This document shows positions 22,887-30,824 of a DNA stretch of 64,000 nt, piece after piece. The stretch is taken from positions 1-64,000 of IMG/VR virus record IMGVR_UViG_3300021962_000025; one strand, 5' to 3'. The notes under the pieces are model-generated. The model was not told the origin of the DNA. It did no database searches and saw nothing but the letters and a program-made list of their open reading frames with translations. Numbering within the stretch: position 1 is the first letter of the stretch; every line of letters begins with the position of its first letter. Source of the stretch: a virus. The position numbers and the translations under genes are program-made.

Positions 22887-22912
22887 AAAAAAGGGATCCG
22901 AAGATCCCTTTT
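22887..22912 (-). terminator. terminator after tmRNA (bidirectional-capable)
   Basis: AAAAGGGATC-cgaa-GATCCCTTTT. Confidence 0.8.
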
Positions 22913-23324
22913 GGTGGAGGTGGCGGGGTTCGAACCCGCGTCTTGTTCGTCCCAACCATAAAGGACTACACGTTTAGGTTAAGGTTTTTCATACCTTCCA
23001 AAATATTTGGTTCCTATTTTGACATTGTTACCAACAACTGTGTCGAGTTCACTTTTAATAAGGTAGTACTCTGAACGAGACCTTTGACACTCCAAGTGGT
23101 ATCACACTATAAGACTTCTGTTCCAAGGTACATGTCCACCGACCCGTCGTAGGAATAACCTTAGGCTACTGCTACTTTAGAATCAACAGATACGAGACCC
23201 ATTAATTCCATTTGTGAATAAACGTTGCCGTCTAAAAAAACGTCACCATAGATTAAAGTGATAGGAAACATCTCACTACGTGCCCCGTATGACTGACTAC
23301 GCCAATCAATGCCATGTCACCCCC
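22912..23324 (-). ncRNA. ssrA: tmRNA, one-piece; tag (A)GNVYSQMELMGLVSVDSKVAVA*
   Basis: 5' GGGGGUG pairs with 3' CACCUCC-A-CCA including the G3.U alanine determinant; T-arm GCGGG-UUCGAAC-CCCGC; resume context UUAGAC-GGC; tag frame 23229-23161. Confidence 0.93.
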
Positions 23325-24685: not shown

Positions 24686-25138
24686 TTATCGACATTGGTA
24701 GTCCGCCGCCCTACTAGCAATTTGTTCGTTAGGTTTCACATTAACCTTAAAACCTAACGAATTAGCCCAACCTTTCGCCATAGGGATAAGTTTATTGGAA
24801 TAATACTTATCATTAGAATTATAATCTAAGTCAATTTGTATTTCCACCTTTATTTTTTCTGATATCCATTGAGCAATTTCTATTGAATATTCAGATTCTT
24901 TTAATAGTCGTGTAAATTTATCATTTATCCTATCTACACTAAAATTTTTATATATGTAATGGACGCCTCTACTTCCATACCTATATGCGATAACAATAGA
25001 ATATTTTGTGATCAAAGCCGAGTTTTGGGAGTCACAACCAACGTGAATTACAGTGTATGGACACAATTCTAAAACCTCTAAAGTGTGTTTTACTATCTCT
25101 ACTTTAGTTCCATCTATTTTTTGAAAGACTTTGACCAT
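24686..25138 (-). CDS. RNase H-like protein, YkuK/DUF458 family
   Basis: 'VIHVGCDSQ','YGSRGVHYI','ESEYSIEIA','IDLDYN','ASRAAD'. Confidence 0.8.
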   Translation of the reverse strand: MVKVFQKIDGTKVEIVKHTLEVLELCPYTVIHVGCDSQNSALITKYSIVIAYRYGSRGVHYIYKNFSVDRINDKFTRLLKESEYSIEIAQWISEKIKVEIQIDLDYNSNDKYYSNKLIPMAKGWANSLGFKVNVKPNEQIASRAADYQCR

Positions 25139-25427: not shown

Positions 25428-25504
25428 TTGGGATGACGGGACTTGAACCCATATGTAACCACTTACTCTTTCTACAAGGTATAAGCTTGAGGAGATACAT
25501 CCCA
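25428..25504 (-). ncRNA. non-canonical tRNA-like RNA (no D-arm before anticodon arm; possible UAU anticodon)
   Basis: Acceptor TGGGATG/CATCCCA, T-arm ATGGG-TTCAAGT-CCCGT, hairpin CAAG-CTTATAC-CTTG, then hairpin GTAA-GTGG-TTAC. Confidence 0.65.
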
Positions 25505-25585: not shown

Positions 25586-25661
25586 AGGTTGAGGTAGGAA
25601 TCGAACCTATCACGTCACGTCCCGTGTTTGCGGGATTGCTCTACCACTGAGCTACTCAACC
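25586..25661 (-). ncRNA. tRNA-like RNA with aberrant 6-nt anticodon loop (CAAACA)
   Basis: Canonical acceptor GGTTGAG/CTCAACC and D-arm GCTC-AGTGGTA-GAGC, T-loop TTCGATT; anticodon arm TCCCG-CAAACA-CGGGA lacks U33. Confidence 0.7.
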
Positions 25662-25888: not shown

Positions 25889-25962
25889 CGGTATGGACGG
25901 GACTCGAACCCGCGACCACTTGAGTGACAGTCAAGTATTCTAACCAGCTGAACTACCACACC
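25889..25962 (-). tRNA. tRNA-Asp(GTC)
   Basis: GGTGTGG/CCATACC-G; loop CT-GTC-AC. Confidence 0.93.
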
Positions 25963-25968
25963 GAATCA

Positions 25969-26099
25969 GCAATCAGGGTGGGATTCGAACCCACATCCAC
26001 TTTCGGTCGGACTGGCTTGTCATTTTGACTTCCCACGTTGTACACCGTGTTGTCCTGTGGAGTACCGATACCTACACATACCAATGTGCGACCTGATTG
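25969..26099 (-). ncRNA. 131-nt tRNA-like RNA with a large structured insert in place of the anticodon loop
   Basis: Acceptor CAATCAGG/CCTGATTG, D-like GCACAT-TGGT-ATGTGT, T-arm GTGGG-TTCGAAT-CCCAC. Confidence 0.65.
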
Positions 26100-26622: not shown

Positions 26623-27000
26623 TTAATCAGTTAATAATTGTTTAGATTTTTTTACGGGTTCACACCCATCTTTATCGATTTTCACCAATCGATTCTCAAA
26701 TTTATCAAACCTACTGTCAATATAACGGTATATGTCGTTCATGTTGTCTTCATGATTCTTATACATTTGATCCGTATATCTCATAGTTTCATTATGTAGG
26801 CCATCTGTTCTACTTATTTCACCATCTATACGTAGGTGAAGTTCTCTTTGGTTTTCATCCAAATTTCTGAATATTCCATTGATAGCTTCCTCGAAACCAT
26901 CGGAACGTTGCTTAACCTTAAACACACCCATAACAGCATACCCCAATCCGAGTAAACCGATCATACTGAGCGCACCTAAAATAAATTCTAAATTTTCCAT
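26623..27000 (-). CDS. membrane-anchored coiled-coil protein
   Basis: N-terminal TM 'FILGALSMIGLLGLGYAVMGVF'. Confidence 0.7.
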   Translation of the reverse strand: MENLEFILGALSMIGLLGLGYAVMGVFKVKQRSDGFEEAINGIFRNLDENQRELHLRIDGEISRTDGLHNETMRYTDQMYKNHEDNMNDIYRYIDSRFDKFENRLVKIDKDGCEPVKKSKQLLTD

Positions 27001-27054: not shown

Positions 27055-27197
27055 CTGTAGTGGAGGGATTCGAACCACTCACGAGGTCTTTAGCCATAGG
27101 ACATTGTACATATTGTGGTCAACCCATTATCCTACGTTTGTCAGATGTTCCTCACCCCCGAGACAGGAGGGTATGTCTGCCGTTTCATCACACTACA
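27055..27197 (-). ncRNA. 143-nt type-II-like tRNA with GTC anticodon and 74-nt variable arm
   Basis: TGTAGTG/CACTACA-G; Leu/Ser-like D-arm ATG-AAACGGCAGA-CAT; CCCTC-CTGTCTC-GGGGG; T-loop TTCGAAT. Confidence 0.72.
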
Positions 27198-27208: not shown

Positions 27209-27282
27209 AGCCTCAGGAGGGATTCGAACCCCCGACAGGCTGATTACAAATCAGCTACTCTGGCCAACTGAGTTACTGAGGC
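27209..27282 (-). tRNA. tRNA-Thr(TGT)
   Basis: GCCTCAG/CTGAGGC-T; loop TT-TGT-AA. Confidence 0.92.
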
Positions 27283-27737: not shown

Positions 27738-28661
27738 ATGTTATTAAAAGTAGGATCAAAAGGAGAACTCGTAAAAGATGTTCAGGAAGTTGTTGGGGTT
27801 ACCGCAGATGGTGTCTTTGGACCTGGTACAGAAGCGGCAGTAAAAAAATGGCAATCAGCAAACGGATTAACTGCCGATGGAATTGTTGGTAATGCAACAT
27901 TAGGGAAGATGGGATTGTTAGACACGGATAGATCTATTAGTGAATCTATTCCTGAAGCTTCTTCAGGTTTGTACACTAAAAAAACATACACATCCCCTAA
28001 TGGTATTGAAGTGATTGAGTATTTCATGCCAAAAGACGAGTATTTGAAGGGTCCAATTAAACCCGAATGGTTATTCTTACATCACACCGCGGGTTGGCAT
28101 AACCCGTATAACACAATTAAATCGTGGGATGCGGATAAAAGTGGTCAAATTGCCACAGAATTTGTTTTAGGTGGACAATCTGTAAAGGGTAACGATGATC
28201 AGTATGATGGTATATTAGTACAAGCATTTCCTAAAGGAAACTATGCGTGGCATTTAGGTAAGAACGGATCACAGACGATGCATAAAAACTCTGTAGGTAT
28301 CGAAGTTTGTAATTTTGGATACGTTGTTAACGGAAAGACCTACGCGGGATCAACCGTAGATGAATCCCAAATTGTTAAATTGTCAAAACCATTTAGAGGT
28401 CATACTGATTGGCACAGATATTCTGATAAACAGATTGAGGTTTTACATAAGTGGATTCTTTGGATTGCGGAAAGAGACGGTATCGATGTAAGAGCTGGGT
28501 TACCCGCATTAGTTAAGAAAAACGGGGCGGACGCTTTCGAGTTTAATGACGACGCTTATTATGGTAAAGTTAAAGGTCTTTGGACCCATACTAATACAAG
28601 AAAAGATAAGGTTGACATGTTCCCTCAACAAGAGTTGATGGATATGTTAGTGAGTCTATAA
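27738..28661 (+). CDS. endolysin: PG-binding domain + N-acetylmuramoyl-L-alanine amidase (Amidase_2-like)
   Basis: 'ADGVFGPGTEAAVKKWQSANGLTADGIVG..T'; 'LHHTAG', 'SVGIEVCN', 'WTH...RKDK.D'. Confidence 0.9.
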   Translation: MLLKVGSKGELVKDVQEVVGVTADGVFGPGTEAAVKKWQSANGLTADGIVGNATLGKMGLLDTDRSISESIPEASSGLYTKKTYTSPNGIEVIEYFMPKDEYLKGPIKPEWLFLHHTAGWHNPYNTIKSWDADKSGQIATEFVLGGQSVKGNDDQYDGILVQAFPKGNYAWHLGKNGSQTMHKNSVGIEVCNFGYVVNGKTYAGSTVDESQIVKLSKPFRGHTDWHRYSDKQIEVLHKWILWIAERDGIDVRAGLPALVKKNGADAFEFNDDAYYGKVKGLWTHTNTRKDKVDMFPQQELMDMLVSL

Positions 28662-28808: not shown

Positions 28809-30824
28809 TTAAATGAGGGGAAGATTTTTGGAAATTTCCAAATTCCCCTCTTTTATTTTTAACAAGATCTCCACATTTTCTACAATATTACCCATCAAAA
28901 TTTCATCACTTATAAAATCTTCACATAGATTTTGAATAATTCTTTTGATTGGTCGGGCACCATACTCTTCCTCAGAATTAAGTTTCAAAATTTCGTCATA
29001 AACGGTTTTGTCAAAAGTTATTTTATAAGAATTCTCGTTTAACCTATTAATTAAAGACTGTAGTTCAATCTGTACGATTTTTCTTAGAGATTTATCATCT
29101 AACTTGTTGAAGACGATTATATCATCTACCCTATTTAAGAATTCTGGTGAGAATTGTTGCTTCAAAGACTTCTTTATAATTGAATCTCTTACTTTTTCTT
29201 GGTTATTATCGTTTGTGAACCCGACACCACCACCAAAATCAGATACTTTCTTAGCACCAATATTTGATGTCATAATAATCAGAGTGTTTGTGAAATTAAC
29301 TTTCCTACCAAAAGAATCGGTTAAGTGACCTTCATCCAAAATCTGTAGTAGAATGTTAAAGACATCCTTATGTGCCTTTTCAATTTCATCAAATAAAACA
29401 ACGGAGAATGGATTGTTTTTTATCTTCTCCGTCAATTGACCACCTTCGTCGTATCCAACGTACCCGGGAGGAGACCCAATCAAACGAGAAACATTATGTT
29501 TTTCCATAAACTCACTCATATCGACCCTAATAATTTTTTCAGGATCCCCAAAAAGTGTTTTAGCTAATGTTTTGGCTAAGTGTGTTTTACCAACACCGGT
29601 AGATCCTAAAAACATGAATGACCCAATGGGTTTATTTGCGTTTTTAACACCGACTCTGTTTCTTCTTATTGATTTTGAGATTTTAGAAACCGCATCGTCT
29701 TGACCAATAACATTTTTAGAGATGGTTTTTTCTAACGATAATAAAGATTTACTTTCTTTGGTGTCCAATTTTGAGATTGGTACTCCCGTCATGGAGGTAA
29801 TGAGATTATAAACATCCTCAACACTAATCTCTTTTCTGTTTACTTGTTGTTCGTCGTTCCATTTTTTCTTTTCTGACTCCAACTTTTTGAGGACCTTCTT
29901 TTCTTCATCTCTGAGTTGTGCCGCCTGTTCATAGTCTTGACTTTTTACGACCTCTAATTTTCTTGTTTTGATTTTCTCCGATTCCTTTTTTAACTTCTCA
30001 ATAGAGTCGGGAATCTTCACATTTATTTTTTTCTCAGAACCTAATTCATCCAAAACGTCAATCGCCTTATCGGGAAACTGTTTATCAGTAATATATCTTT
30101 TACTAAGGGATACGATAGTTTCGATAACATTAGAATTATAAGAAACCCTGTGAAACTCCTCATATGAAGGTTTTAAGTTGTAAAGAATATCAATTGTTTC
30201 ATCCACAGTGGGTTCGTTAAGTATAATTTTTTGAAATCTCCTTACCAACGCACCATCTTTTTCAATGTTCTTTTTGAATTCATCAAATGTTGTGGCACCA
30301 ATACATTGAATTTCTCCTCGAGCCAATGCGGGTTTTAAAATATTCGCAGCATCCATAGACCCCGACGCATTACCCGCACCAACCATAGTGTGAATTTCGT
30401 CTATAAAGACAATTACGTTTGGGGCTTCCTGTAGTTCATTTAAGATAGCTTTAATTCTCTCTTCAAACTGTCCCCTATACTTTGTACCTGCAACTAAAGA
30501 TGTGAGGTCTAAGGACATTATTCGTTTATCCAGTAGATTGGTGGGACAGTTACCGTTTGTAATTAGTAGGGCTAACTTTTCTACTAACGCAGATTTACCC
30601 ACACCCGCGTCACCAACGATGACAACGTTATTTTTCTTTTTCCTTGATAGTATTTGGGCTATTCTCATAACCTCCTTACCCCTACCTATGATAGGATCTA
30701 TCAACCCCTCACTCGCCAATCGAGTGAGATCCCTTGAGAAGTTATCGAGTACTGGTGTATTAGACCCTCTCTTACTTTTTCTCTGTTGTGATGGTGACCC
30801 ACCTTCAAAAAAATCCACGGACAT
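28809..30824 (-). CDS. clpC: ClpC-like AAA+ unfoldase lacking the N-terminal Clp-repeat domain
   Basis: Two AAA modules (GDAGVGKS, FIDEIH; GSTGVGKT, LFDEIEKAH), UVR middle domain 'VKSQDYEQAAQLRD', ClpP-docking-type 'VGF' loop. Confidence 0.9.
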   Translation of the reverse strand: MSVDFFEGGSPSQQRKSKRGSNTPVLDNFSRDLTRLASEGLIDPIIGRGKEVMRIAQILSRKKKNNVVIVGDAGVGKSALVEKLALLITNGNCPTNLLDKRIMSLDLTSLVAGTKYRGQFEERIKAILNELQEAPNVIVFIDEIHTMVGAGNASGSMDAANILKPALARGEIQCIGATTFDEFKKNIEKDGALVRRFQKIILNEPTVDETIDILYNLKPSYEEFHRVSYNSNVIETIVSLSKRYITDKQFPDKAIDVLDELGSEKKINVKIPDSIEKLKKESEKIKTRKLEVVKSQDYEQAAQLRDEEKKVLKKLESEKKKWNDEQQVNRKEISVEDVYNLITSMTGVPISKLDTKESKSLLSLEKTISKNVIGQDDAVSKISKSIRRNRVGVKNANKPIGSFMFLGSTGVGKTHLAKTLAKTLFGDPEKIIRVDMSEFMEKHNVSRLIGSPPGYVGYDEGGQLTEKIKNNPFSVVLFDEIEKAHKDVFNILLQILDEGHLTDSFGRKVNFTNTLIIMTSNIGAKKVSDFGGGVGFTNDNNQEKVRDSIIKKSLKQQFSPEFLNRVDDIIVFNKLDDKSLRKIVQIELQSLINRLNENSYKITFDKTVYDEILKLNSEEEYGARPIKRIIQNLCEDFISDEILMGNIVENVEILLKIKEGNLEISKNLPLI

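Follow-up and report, generated by a model that had tools for sequence, protein, structure and literature searches.

A tRNA-Leu-type RNA with a GUC anticodon and a giant variable arm, shared by Bacteroidota and their phages

The nearest published system to the RNA described here is that of the allo-tRNAs, long-armed transfer RNAs (tRNAs) of bacteria and phages, with GUC as one of the predominant anticodons (Mukai et al. 2017, PMC5389517). Allo-tRNAs were reported in Clostridia, Proteobacteria and Acidobacteria, are discussed as missense suppressors or regulatory RNAs, and combine an acceptor/T branch of 8/4 or 9/3 base pairs (bp) with a serine identity. A long-armed RNA with the same anticodon, named here the giant-armed RNA, is encoded on the minus strand of a stretch of 64,000 nucleotides (nt), the window, which is the first 64 kb of a 183.8-kb phage record in IMG/VR (IMGVR_UViG_3300021962_000025; CheckV completeness 59%). 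The source is probably a jumbo phage. Comparison with homologues indicates that this element is a real, conserved and structurally constrained RNA gene, the phage copy of a family that is common to Bacteroidota and their phages and is uncatalogued.

The branch that defines the allo-tRNAs is lacking in this family. In place of their 12-bp branch, the window copy has a 7-bp acceptor stem and a 5-bp T stem with one bulge, and the eighth position would be a U-C mismatch. Furthermore, the body is of the tRNA-Leu type, the identity determinants are those of aspartate, and no arm of such length is found in the descriptions of allo-tRNAs consulted. The selenocysteine tRNA (tRNA-Sec) is also a special-purpose tRNA, in which a long arm and unusual stems attract dedicated factors and exclude EF-Tu; its branch, however, is 8/5, its D stem has 6 bp and a 4-nt loop, and its anticodon is UCA, compared to 7/5, 3 bp, 10 nt and GUC in the window copy. 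In the non-proteinogenic tRNA-Gly of Staphylococcus and in Asp-tRNA-Asn, full tRNAs keep the anticodon for the synthetase, and weak 49-65 and 51-63 pairs prevent their binding to EF-Tu (PMC1904265). The family shows the same T-stem signature, a functional analogy only: those RNAs are of normal size with known partners (Fem transferases, GatCAB), whereas the family has its giant arm. No description of the family was found in the open-access literature. DNAVirus_1850, a candidate RNA reported from phages (PMC10690425), coincides in part with a tRNA-Asp call and might be the same RNA.

The window copy is a complete cloverleaf with a tRNA-Leu-type body and a GUC anticodon (Table 1). A 7-bp acceptor stem (TGTAGTG/CACTACA) is followed by U8 G9, and the D, anticodon and T arms are all present, with G18 G19 in the D loop and TTCRA in the T loop. 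Among the single positions that matter below are U1-A72, G2-C71, A4-U69, A10, U11-A24 and U30-G40. An earlier note, made from the letters of the window, had described an intact acceptor stem with a G discriminator, a D arm, an anticodon arm with a pyrimidine at position 37, a 74-nt variable region with GAGG/CCTC and TAGGA/TCCTA pairings, and a bulged T stem; each of these lies where it was placed, on the minus strand, and so does the normal tRNA-Asp(GTC) at 25889 (25889-25962). The note had called the D arm Leu/Ser-type and the body type II: class II and Leu type hold, in agreement with the phage's own tRNA-Leu, and the Ser type does not.

Table 1. Features of the giant-armed RNA and its surroundings. 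Positions are those of the window, except in the last row.
Feature	Position	Strand	Remarks
Giant-armed RNA gene, whole, 143 nt	27055..27197	-	RNA position n = window position 27198-n; matched by model R1
Acceptor stem, 5' strand, U1 G2 U3 A4 G5 U6 G7	27191..27197	-	pairs with 27056-27062
Acceptor stem, 3' strand (27056-27062), and discriminator G73 (27055)	27055..27062	-	next base C; CCA not encoded
D arm, 3-bp stem ATG/CAT, loop AAACGGCAGA with G18 G19	27173..27188	-	tRNA-Leu-type; 10-nt loop
Anticodon arm CCCTC-CTGTCTC-GGGGG	27155..27171	-	GTC 27162-27164; U37 27161; C38 27160
Variable arm, 74 nt	27081..27154	-	closed by GAGG/CCTC; inner helix includes TAGGA/TCCTA
Arm helix P1	27150-27153 with 27083-27086	-	100% paired in the alignment
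Arm helix P1b	27143-27145 with 27087-27089	-	3/3 pairs with double changes
Arm internal loop, GACAAA opposite GCTAA	27137-27142 opposite 27090-27094	-	motifs conserved in the family
Arm helix P2	27128-27136 with 27095-27103	-	8/9 pairs with double changes
Arm-tip motif GGGTTGACCAC	27115..27125	-	conserved in sequence; short UGG/CCA pairing weakly supported
Self-complementary hexamer TGTACA	27105..27110	-	just 3' of the tip motif
T arm GAG-T-GG / TTCGAAT / CCCTC	27063..27080	-	bulged U 27077; G49-C65, A50-U64, G51-C63
tRNA-Thr(TGT)	27209..27282	-	11 nt upstream of the giant-armed RNA; ARAGORN and Rfam, 66 bits
Canonical tRNA-Asp(GTC)	25889..25962	-	ARAGORN and Rfam, 68 bits
Promoter-like site	27410-27382	-	precedes tRNA-Thr; weak: consensus match, site counts not above shuffles
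Orphan open reading frame, 125 amino acids, hydrophobic N-terminus	26623..27000	-	directly downstream of the giant-armed RNA
Terminator-like hairpin	26593-26576	-	after the 125-amino-acid frame; terminator scan, consensus match
Transfer-messenger RNA (tmRNA) of the phage	22912-23324	-	Rfam, 79.9 bits; tag peptide VDSKVAVA according to ARAGORN
YkuK/DUF458 RNase H-like gene (PF04308)	24686-25138	-	closes the tRNA operon in the window
UUC-anticodon copies in a bacterial genome	G140:C1:3851969-3852499 (L334): 3852069-3852178 and 3852291-3852399		two copies

Tools that work on a single sequence are silent on this segment. ARAGORN at default settings makes no call at 27055-27197, and its intron mode at an 80% threshold returns only a poor model. 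At E<=1, no Rfam family matches the segment, including the tRNA model RF00005 and tRNA-Sec, nor do tmRNA (RF00023) and YrlA (RF02553); the anticodon arm is complete. Nor does the folding energy stand out (z = -0.25). Hence, the case rests on the comparison of homologues.

An exact search with the T arm and the 3' acceptor strand led to four phage contigs with full-length homologues, and a 19-mer of the anticodon arm matched 103 phage contigs of IMG/VR and at least 120 contigs of bacteria. The bacterial matches listed belong almost all to Bacteroidota (Dyadobacter, Spirosoma, Algoriphagus, Cyclobacterium, Belliella, Echinicola, Marivirga and Arcicella), many of these contigs having two to three tandem copies; further carriers are Saprospiraceae and other Cytophagales and Chitinophagales. 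Two extra searches were made with the anticodon loop or the anticodon stem left unspecified. A total of 264 distinct full-length members was parsed, 123 of them of phage and 141 of Bacteroidota origin, with a length of 111-192 nt and arms of 15-123 nt that form a continuous range. Phage members with short arms are called tRNA-Asp(gtc) by ARAGORN, so the family grades into class II tRNAs of ordinary size. No match was obtained by blastn (E<=0.01) in the INPHARED collection of 50,697 GenBank phage records.

The covariance model of the family, R1, recognizes the window copy with 139.2 bits (E = 7e-35) over model positions 1-147, exactly at 27055-27197 on the minus strand, and this is the only copy in the 183.8-kb record. 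Its nearest relatives are phage copies, 85-91% identical, the best bacterial copy reaching 82%. The family is present in about 15 of the 151 Bacteroidota genomes sampled, with scores of 62 to 145 bits; in the remaining ones, the only R1 matches are tRNA-Leu genes, at 50-63 bits.

A covariance alignment of homologues, which the earlier note had named as a check, was made from the 87 members with arms resembling that of the window copy. Its cells are paired in 92.7% of cases, versus 76.1% in shuffles, and compensatory changes on both sides occur at 30 of the 39 base pairs. The covariation score of 0.497 compares with 0.176 for shuffles, none of 500 reaching it, and with 0.09-0.14 when the partners are slid. 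All helices are supported: the acceptor, D and anticodon stems, the three helices of the arm and the T stem. In the acceptor stem, 100% of the cells are paired, with compensatory changes at six of the seven pairs, and in the T stem, 99.5%, with double changes at four of the five. The D stem covaries between ATG/CAT, ACG/CGT and TTG/CAA. Among the 12 closest phage relatives, 60 of the 75 changed pairs can still form, in 35 cases by changes on both sides. Given these compensatory changes and the controls, a chance match is ruled out, and so is the random decay that the earlier note had named as the mark of a pseudogene.

The signature of the family, 95-100% conserved and complete in the window copy, consists of U1-A72, G2-C71, U8 G9, the loop YUGUCYC, G73 and the arm start U44-G45. 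In numbers, U1-A72 is found in 260 of the 264 members, G2-C71 in 263, U3-A70 in 254, U8 G9 in 263 and G73 in 263. The anticodon loop is CUGUCUC or UUGUCUC in 252/264. A search with an unconstrained loop still shows no variation at G34, U35 and C36, and the anticodon stem covaries when it is unconstrained. C38 and G73 are each kept in at least 97% of members. Position 37 is U, rarely C and once A; at position 33, U is replaced by C, G or A in about 3% of members. The only other anticodon, UUC (Glu), was encountered in two tandem copies in one bacterial genome (1/401 Bacteroidota genomes searched); their loop, CUUUCUC, keeps U37 and C38, and no such variant was found in phage contigs. The T-stem bulge of the window copy recurs in 40 members, of phages and bacteria alike, and its flanks covary (GAG-T-GG/CCCTC with AAG-T-GG/CCCTT).

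The giant arm has a fixed order of elements: a 4-bp basal helix, a bulge, a 3-bp helix, an asymmetric internal loop, a variable helix and a tip motif. The 5' strand of the internal loop reads RAYAAA in 198/264 members and the 3' strand CUAA (CTAA) in 216/264; a variant with GAAAUAG and UGAAUC is seen only in phages. A kink-turn was considered for this loop and rejected, the pairs that it needs being taken by the covarying P1b helix. At the tip, GGGUUGACCAC is present in 82% of the phage and 57% of the bacterial copies, and GACCAC/T in 101/123 and 80/141, respectively.

Directly 3' of the tip motif, phage copies, unlike bacterial ones, have a perfect palindrome of 6-12 nt, in at least 28 different sequences such as GCUUGCAAGC, GCCGGCCGGC and GCGCGC (for example in L003, L009, L014 and L022). 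Palindromes of at least 6 nt occur in 83% of the 76 distinct phage tips, versus 28% of shuffles and 17% of bacterial tips, and those of at least 8 nt in 58%, versus 7.5% of shuffles. The 6-mer UGUACA of the window copy is not significant on its own. Pairing between two RNA molecules would be the simplest reading of the palindrome, because a 6-mer cannot form a hairpin and the center of the palindrome is also palindromic. A homodimer test with RNAcofold was uninformative, as dimers are favored in phage and bacterial copies alike (medians of -14.8 and -10.8 kcal/mol); these dimers arose by trivial domain swapping, and the palindrome was unused in the window copy.

The body resembles tRNA-Leu (RF00005) in its 7/5 acceptor/T configuration, in the 3-bp D stem and in the D loop, AAAYUGGCAGA in the family and of the GAAUUGGUAGA type in tRNA-Leu, which are of the same type. 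U44 precedes the arm, and two unpaired bases, the second of them U48, come after it. In the window copy, the arm is thus flanked by one and two (GU) unpaired bases, like in the phage's own tRNA-Leu, compared to one and one in its tRNA-Ser. The U after the arm is invariant in the family and is the expected partner of A15. The next-best R1 matches in Bacteroidota genomes, the 50-63-bit genes mentioned above, are of this type too. On the other hand, tRNA-Leu has A73, whereas the family has G73, GUC in a tRNA-Asp-like loop and U1-A72, and the arm of tRNA-Leu is only ~13-15 nt long, without the internal loop and tip motif of the family.

With canonical tRNA-Asp(GUC), the RNA shares G73, G34, U35, C36, C38 and G2-C71, and the anticodon loops, CUGUCUC and CUGUCAC, are one base apart. 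Canonical tRNA-Asp is, however, a class I tRNA with G1-C72, G10 and A37, and the window copy is class II with U1-A72, A10 and U37. The T stem differs as well: G49-U65 and G51-C63 in tRNA-Asp, compared to G49-C65 and A51-U63 in the family (G51-C63 and the bulge in the window copy). The tRNA-Asp features, from the class I body to the T stem, are complete in the canonical genes of the window phage and of five carrier bacteria. The tRNA-Asp of the window phage itself has G1-C72, the loop CTGTCAC with A37 and the T stem GCGGG/CCCGT.

LeuRS and TyrRS, the leucyl- and tyrosyl-tRNA synthetases, require A73; the window copy has G73 and GUC instead of A73 and a leucine anticodon. The strong bacterial determinants for aspartate are G73, G34, U35, C36 and C38; even in minimal substrates, G73 and the anticodon are strict requirements (PMC9976931). 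The window copy has all five, as do at least 97% of members. Of the tRNA-Ser set given in the same source, the window copy has G73, G2-C71 and A4-U69 and is without C72, C11-G24 and G30-C40, in place of which A72, U11-A24 and U30-G40 are found. Taken together, the five retained aspartate determinants, the missing serine determinants and the Leu-type arm make charging with aspartate by the aspartyl-tRNA synthetase (AspRS) the best inference for the family, and weaken serylation.

Whether such an RNA would serve decoding depends in part on EF-Tu. Aspartate is a weak ligand of EF-Tu, the binding of Asp-tRNA needs G49-U65 together with G51-C63, and G49-C65 with A51-U63 keeps Asp-tRNA-Asn off the factor (Roy et al. 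2007, PMC1904265). Every canonical tRNA-Asp checked, from five carrier bacteria and the window phage, has G49-U65 and G51-C63. In the family, G49-C65 is found in 250/264 members. When a weak class is defined by no U in 49-65 and a U in 51-63, and a strong class by a U in 49-65 and none in 51-63, 226 of the 264 members (86%) are weak and only seven are strong. The window copy, with G49-C65, G51-C63 and a bulge next to 51-63, is one of 40 such members. The weak T stem, the pyrimidine at 37 and the tolerance of bases other than U at position 33 point to an anticodon loop kept for recognition by the synthetase, not for codon reading.

Canonical tRNA-Asp coexists with the giant-armed RNA in the same genomes. 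It is kept in all five carrier bacteria checked, with one to three genes each, and in seven of the nine largest phage arrays (at least 14 tRNAs); one of these arrays covers all 20 amino acids and carries the giant-armed RNA too. The giant-armed RNA is therefore not a replacement for tRNA-Asp, an explanation that was considered for the phage arrays and rejected since most of the largest ones have both genes. At 52 of the 122 phage loci, no other tRNA lies within 1.5 kb. A tRNA-Asp is found within this distance at only three of the 122, and those for Phe, Asn, Lys and His are likewise rare. As far as sequence can tell, the giant-armed RNA is not simply another tRNA-Asp, and it probably does something other than ordinary decoding.

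The reading that we favor, with a confidence somewhat short of even, is that of an RNA matured like a tRNA and charged with aspartate, which decodes poorly or not at all and uses its arm as a handle for a partner. To this extent the interpretation of the earlier note is supported: a special-purpose tRNA or tRNA mimic beside a normal tRNA-Asp is the best description. The RNA would be transcribed together with tRNA-Thr from the phage tRNA operon, and excised by RNase P and the machinery for 3'-end and CCA formation like the neighboring tRNAs; tRNA-like maturation is suggested by the intact acceptor, D and T arms and by the base after the discriminator, shared with the array (see below). The host AspRS would then load aspartate, according to established identity rules. 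Delivery to the ribosome would be poor or nil because of the weak EF-Tu-class T stem, the pyrimidine at 37 and the dispensable U33 in some members, and the arm, in which the internal loop and the tip motif are conserved, would be the handle for a host partner. Phages may keep their own copy because this activity is also useful, or limiting, during infection. A fuller form of this proposal, possible but doubtful, is a non-translating aminoacyl carrier: a tRNA-Leu-derived scaffold loaded by AspRS through a copied tRNA-Asp anticodon loop, barred from EF-Tu and the ribosome by a tRNA-Asn-like branch (U1-A72, G49-C65, A51-U63) and the pyrimidine at 37, with a giant arm as the docking site of an enzyme or regulator dedicated to it; after capture by phages, a self-complementary tip would have been added that allows their copies to pair. 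Several points speak against such a non-decoding role. The EF-Tu argument is weaker for the window copy than for the family, because of its G51-C63 pair and bulge, and the weak T stem could have been inherited from a tRNA-Leu ancestor instead of being selected. Charging could be inefficient, as G10 is missing and U1-A72 takes the place of G1-C72, a pair that contributes to the placement of the acceptor end in E. coli AspRS. The neighborhood analysis of bacterial and phage loci yielded no candidate for a partner protein. Finally, the full tRNA core, the invariant anticodon, the position in arrays and the short-arm members called by ARAGORN fit a true decoder equally well.

Such a decoder, a genuine second tRNA-Asp for GAC and GAU that is either a condition-specific isoacceptor or resistant to tRNA-Asp inactivation, its arm tuning recognition or stability, is unlikely but has to be taken seriously: the tertiary landmarks of the cloverleaf are complete, the 3' flank is that of real tRNAs, and G51-C63 of the window copy is one of the two strong EF-Tu pairs. 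It is difficult to reconcile with the canonical tRNA-Asp that accompanies the RNA in every bacterium tested and in most of the large arrays of phages, with the pyrimidine 37 of all members but one and the absence of U33 in some, and with a T-stem class that excludes aspartylated tRNA from EF-Tu in 86% of members (PMC1904265), when every canonical tRNA-Asp checked belongs to the strong class of just 7/264. A specific version of the favored non-decoding role, in which AspRS loads aspartate and GatCAB reads the tRNA-Asn-like branch to make asparagine off the ribosome, is improbable. U1-A72, present in nearly all members, is a determinant of the amidotransferase (PMC9976931), the commonest T-stem pairs are those that keep Asp-tRNA-Asn off EF-Tu (PMC1904265), and the UUC variant specifies glutamate, the other amino acid that GatCAB amidates. 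GatB is present in all ~15 sampled carriers, yet also in 126 of the 151 sampled Bacteroidota genomes, so its co-occurrence was set aside as uninformative. Furthermore, the UUC variant is limited to a single genome and lacks most determinants of the glutamyl-tRNA synthetase, a phage need for amidation is hard to see, and the 'AsnC' neighbor is an Lrp/AsnC gene that heads lrp-sufB-sufC, at only 66/114 loci, so that its name has no real link to asparagine.

The other uses suggested in the earlier note fare less well. Action as a decoy or sponge for anticodon nucleases, or for other tRNA-sensing defense or toxin systems attacking GUN tRNAs, is very improbable, even if the loop differs from that of tRNA-Asp at position 37 only and the RNA is the sole tRNA-like gene in many phages: the bacterial copies, often two to three in tandem, lie in a conserved housekeeping context (beside lrp-sufBC) and not in defense islands, no nuclease or immunity gene is linked at the loci examined, and the loop is the same in host and phage, therefore not a phage-specific escape variant. 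Charging by the seryl-tRNA synthetase (SerRS) through the long arm and G73, with insertion of serine at Asp codons, seems more improbable still. Long-armed GUC tRNAs do insert serine in E. coli (Mukai et al. 2017, PMC5389517), and the long arm, G73, G2-C71 and R4-Y69 are in place. However, in arm geometry and D loop the RNA agrees with the tRNA-Leu of the phage instead of with its tRNA-Ser, three serine determinants are replaced (by A72, U30-G40 and, in the window copy, U11-A24), all five aspartate determinants are kept, and the branch is 7/5 instead of 8/4 or 9/3. SerRS ignores the anticodon; the strict conservation of GUC, C38 and the loop would therefore be unexplained under serylation. Hardly credible is an ordinary tRNA-Asp with an intron, cargo or other insertion in the variable region, or a decaying pseudogene. 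The gene is indeed missed by default tRNA finders and modeled, poorly, only by the low-threshold intron mode of ARAGORN, but the arm is a covarying helix with conserved motifs and a continuous range of lengths, and the substitutions are compensatory, not random. The body without the arm is tRNA-Leu-like, with U1-A72 and U37, and not tRNA-Asp-like. No group I or II intron of Rfam matches the window copy, the insert of which occupies the site of the variable arm, and the arm shows no evident signal for splicing. We know of no bacterial splicing system for the variable-region position.

In bacteria, the gene is solitary at 113 of the 114 loci. The divergent Lrp/AsnC-family gene is followed by sufB and sufC on the same strand (for example at L157, L191 and L123), and some loci have an AMP-binding enzyme downstream. 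In these Cytophagales and Saprospiraceae, the Lrp/AsnC-family gene appears to head the operon for iron-sulfur cluster assembly. Clustering of the neighborhoods of the phage loci revealed no constant protein neighbor.

If the favored role is correct, a branch of the Bacteroidota (Cytophagales, Saprospiraceae and relatives) and more than 100 of their phages harbor a tRNA-type RNA, seemingly abundant, that neither Rfam nor standard tRNA annotation includes. Recognition by a synthetase would be separated from decoding, which would be one more case among the few tRNAs that act outside translation, and the family would be a natural example of the size of variable arm that the tRNA fold tolerates. 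Phage 'tRNA arrays' also hold non-standard members under selection. The giant-armed RNA as the only tRNA-like gene of many phages points to a host process that matters during infection.

In the window, the minus strand from 22.9 to 27.3 kb encodes a tmRNA and eight canonical tRNAs (Met, Asn, Pro, Asp, Ser, Arg, Leu and Thr), as identified by ARAGORN and Rfam. The giant-armed RNA and the tRNA-Thr are probably part of one precursor. In all eight canonical genes and in the giant-armed RNA, the discriminator is followed by a C and the full CCA is not encoded, and this shared base suggests a common 3'-end pathway. For the 125-amino-acid frame downstream, no Pfam family was found, and no homologue beside other family members.

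Further tRNA-like elements were observed in the same array, all on the minus strand. At 25970-26098, a second oversized tRNA-shaped RNA of ~130 nt has the acceptor stem AATCAGG/CCTGATT, a good T arm and a multi-hairpin domain in place of the anticodon loop; R1 gives it just 23 bits, and a sub-threshold Rfam match to YrlA, a tRNA-like Y RNA (33 bits, 25909-26023), overlaps it. In the element at 25586-25661, the acceptor, D and T arms are perfect but the anticodon region is abnormal (ARAGORN tRNA-???, Rfam 38.8 bits), and the discriminator is followed by an A, unlike the C of all other tRNA genes of the array. Between tRNA-Pro and tRNA-Asn, at 25428-25504, lies an element with acceptor and T arms and rearranged inner arms, of which the sole match is a very weak hit of the tmRNA model (11.9 bits). 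A YkuK-type gene (PF04308) like the one of the window was also encountered in 12 other phage contigs (L003, L004, L013, L045, L048, L063, L066, L072, L079, L098, L275 and L315), at a distance of less than 4 kb from the giant-armed RNA, a recurrence that may indicate a link to phage tRNA arrays. The tRNA region is flanked by a ClpB/ClpC-type double AAA+ ATPase (28809-30824, minus strand) and by a peptidoglycan-binding amidase, a likely endolysin (27738-28661, plus strand).

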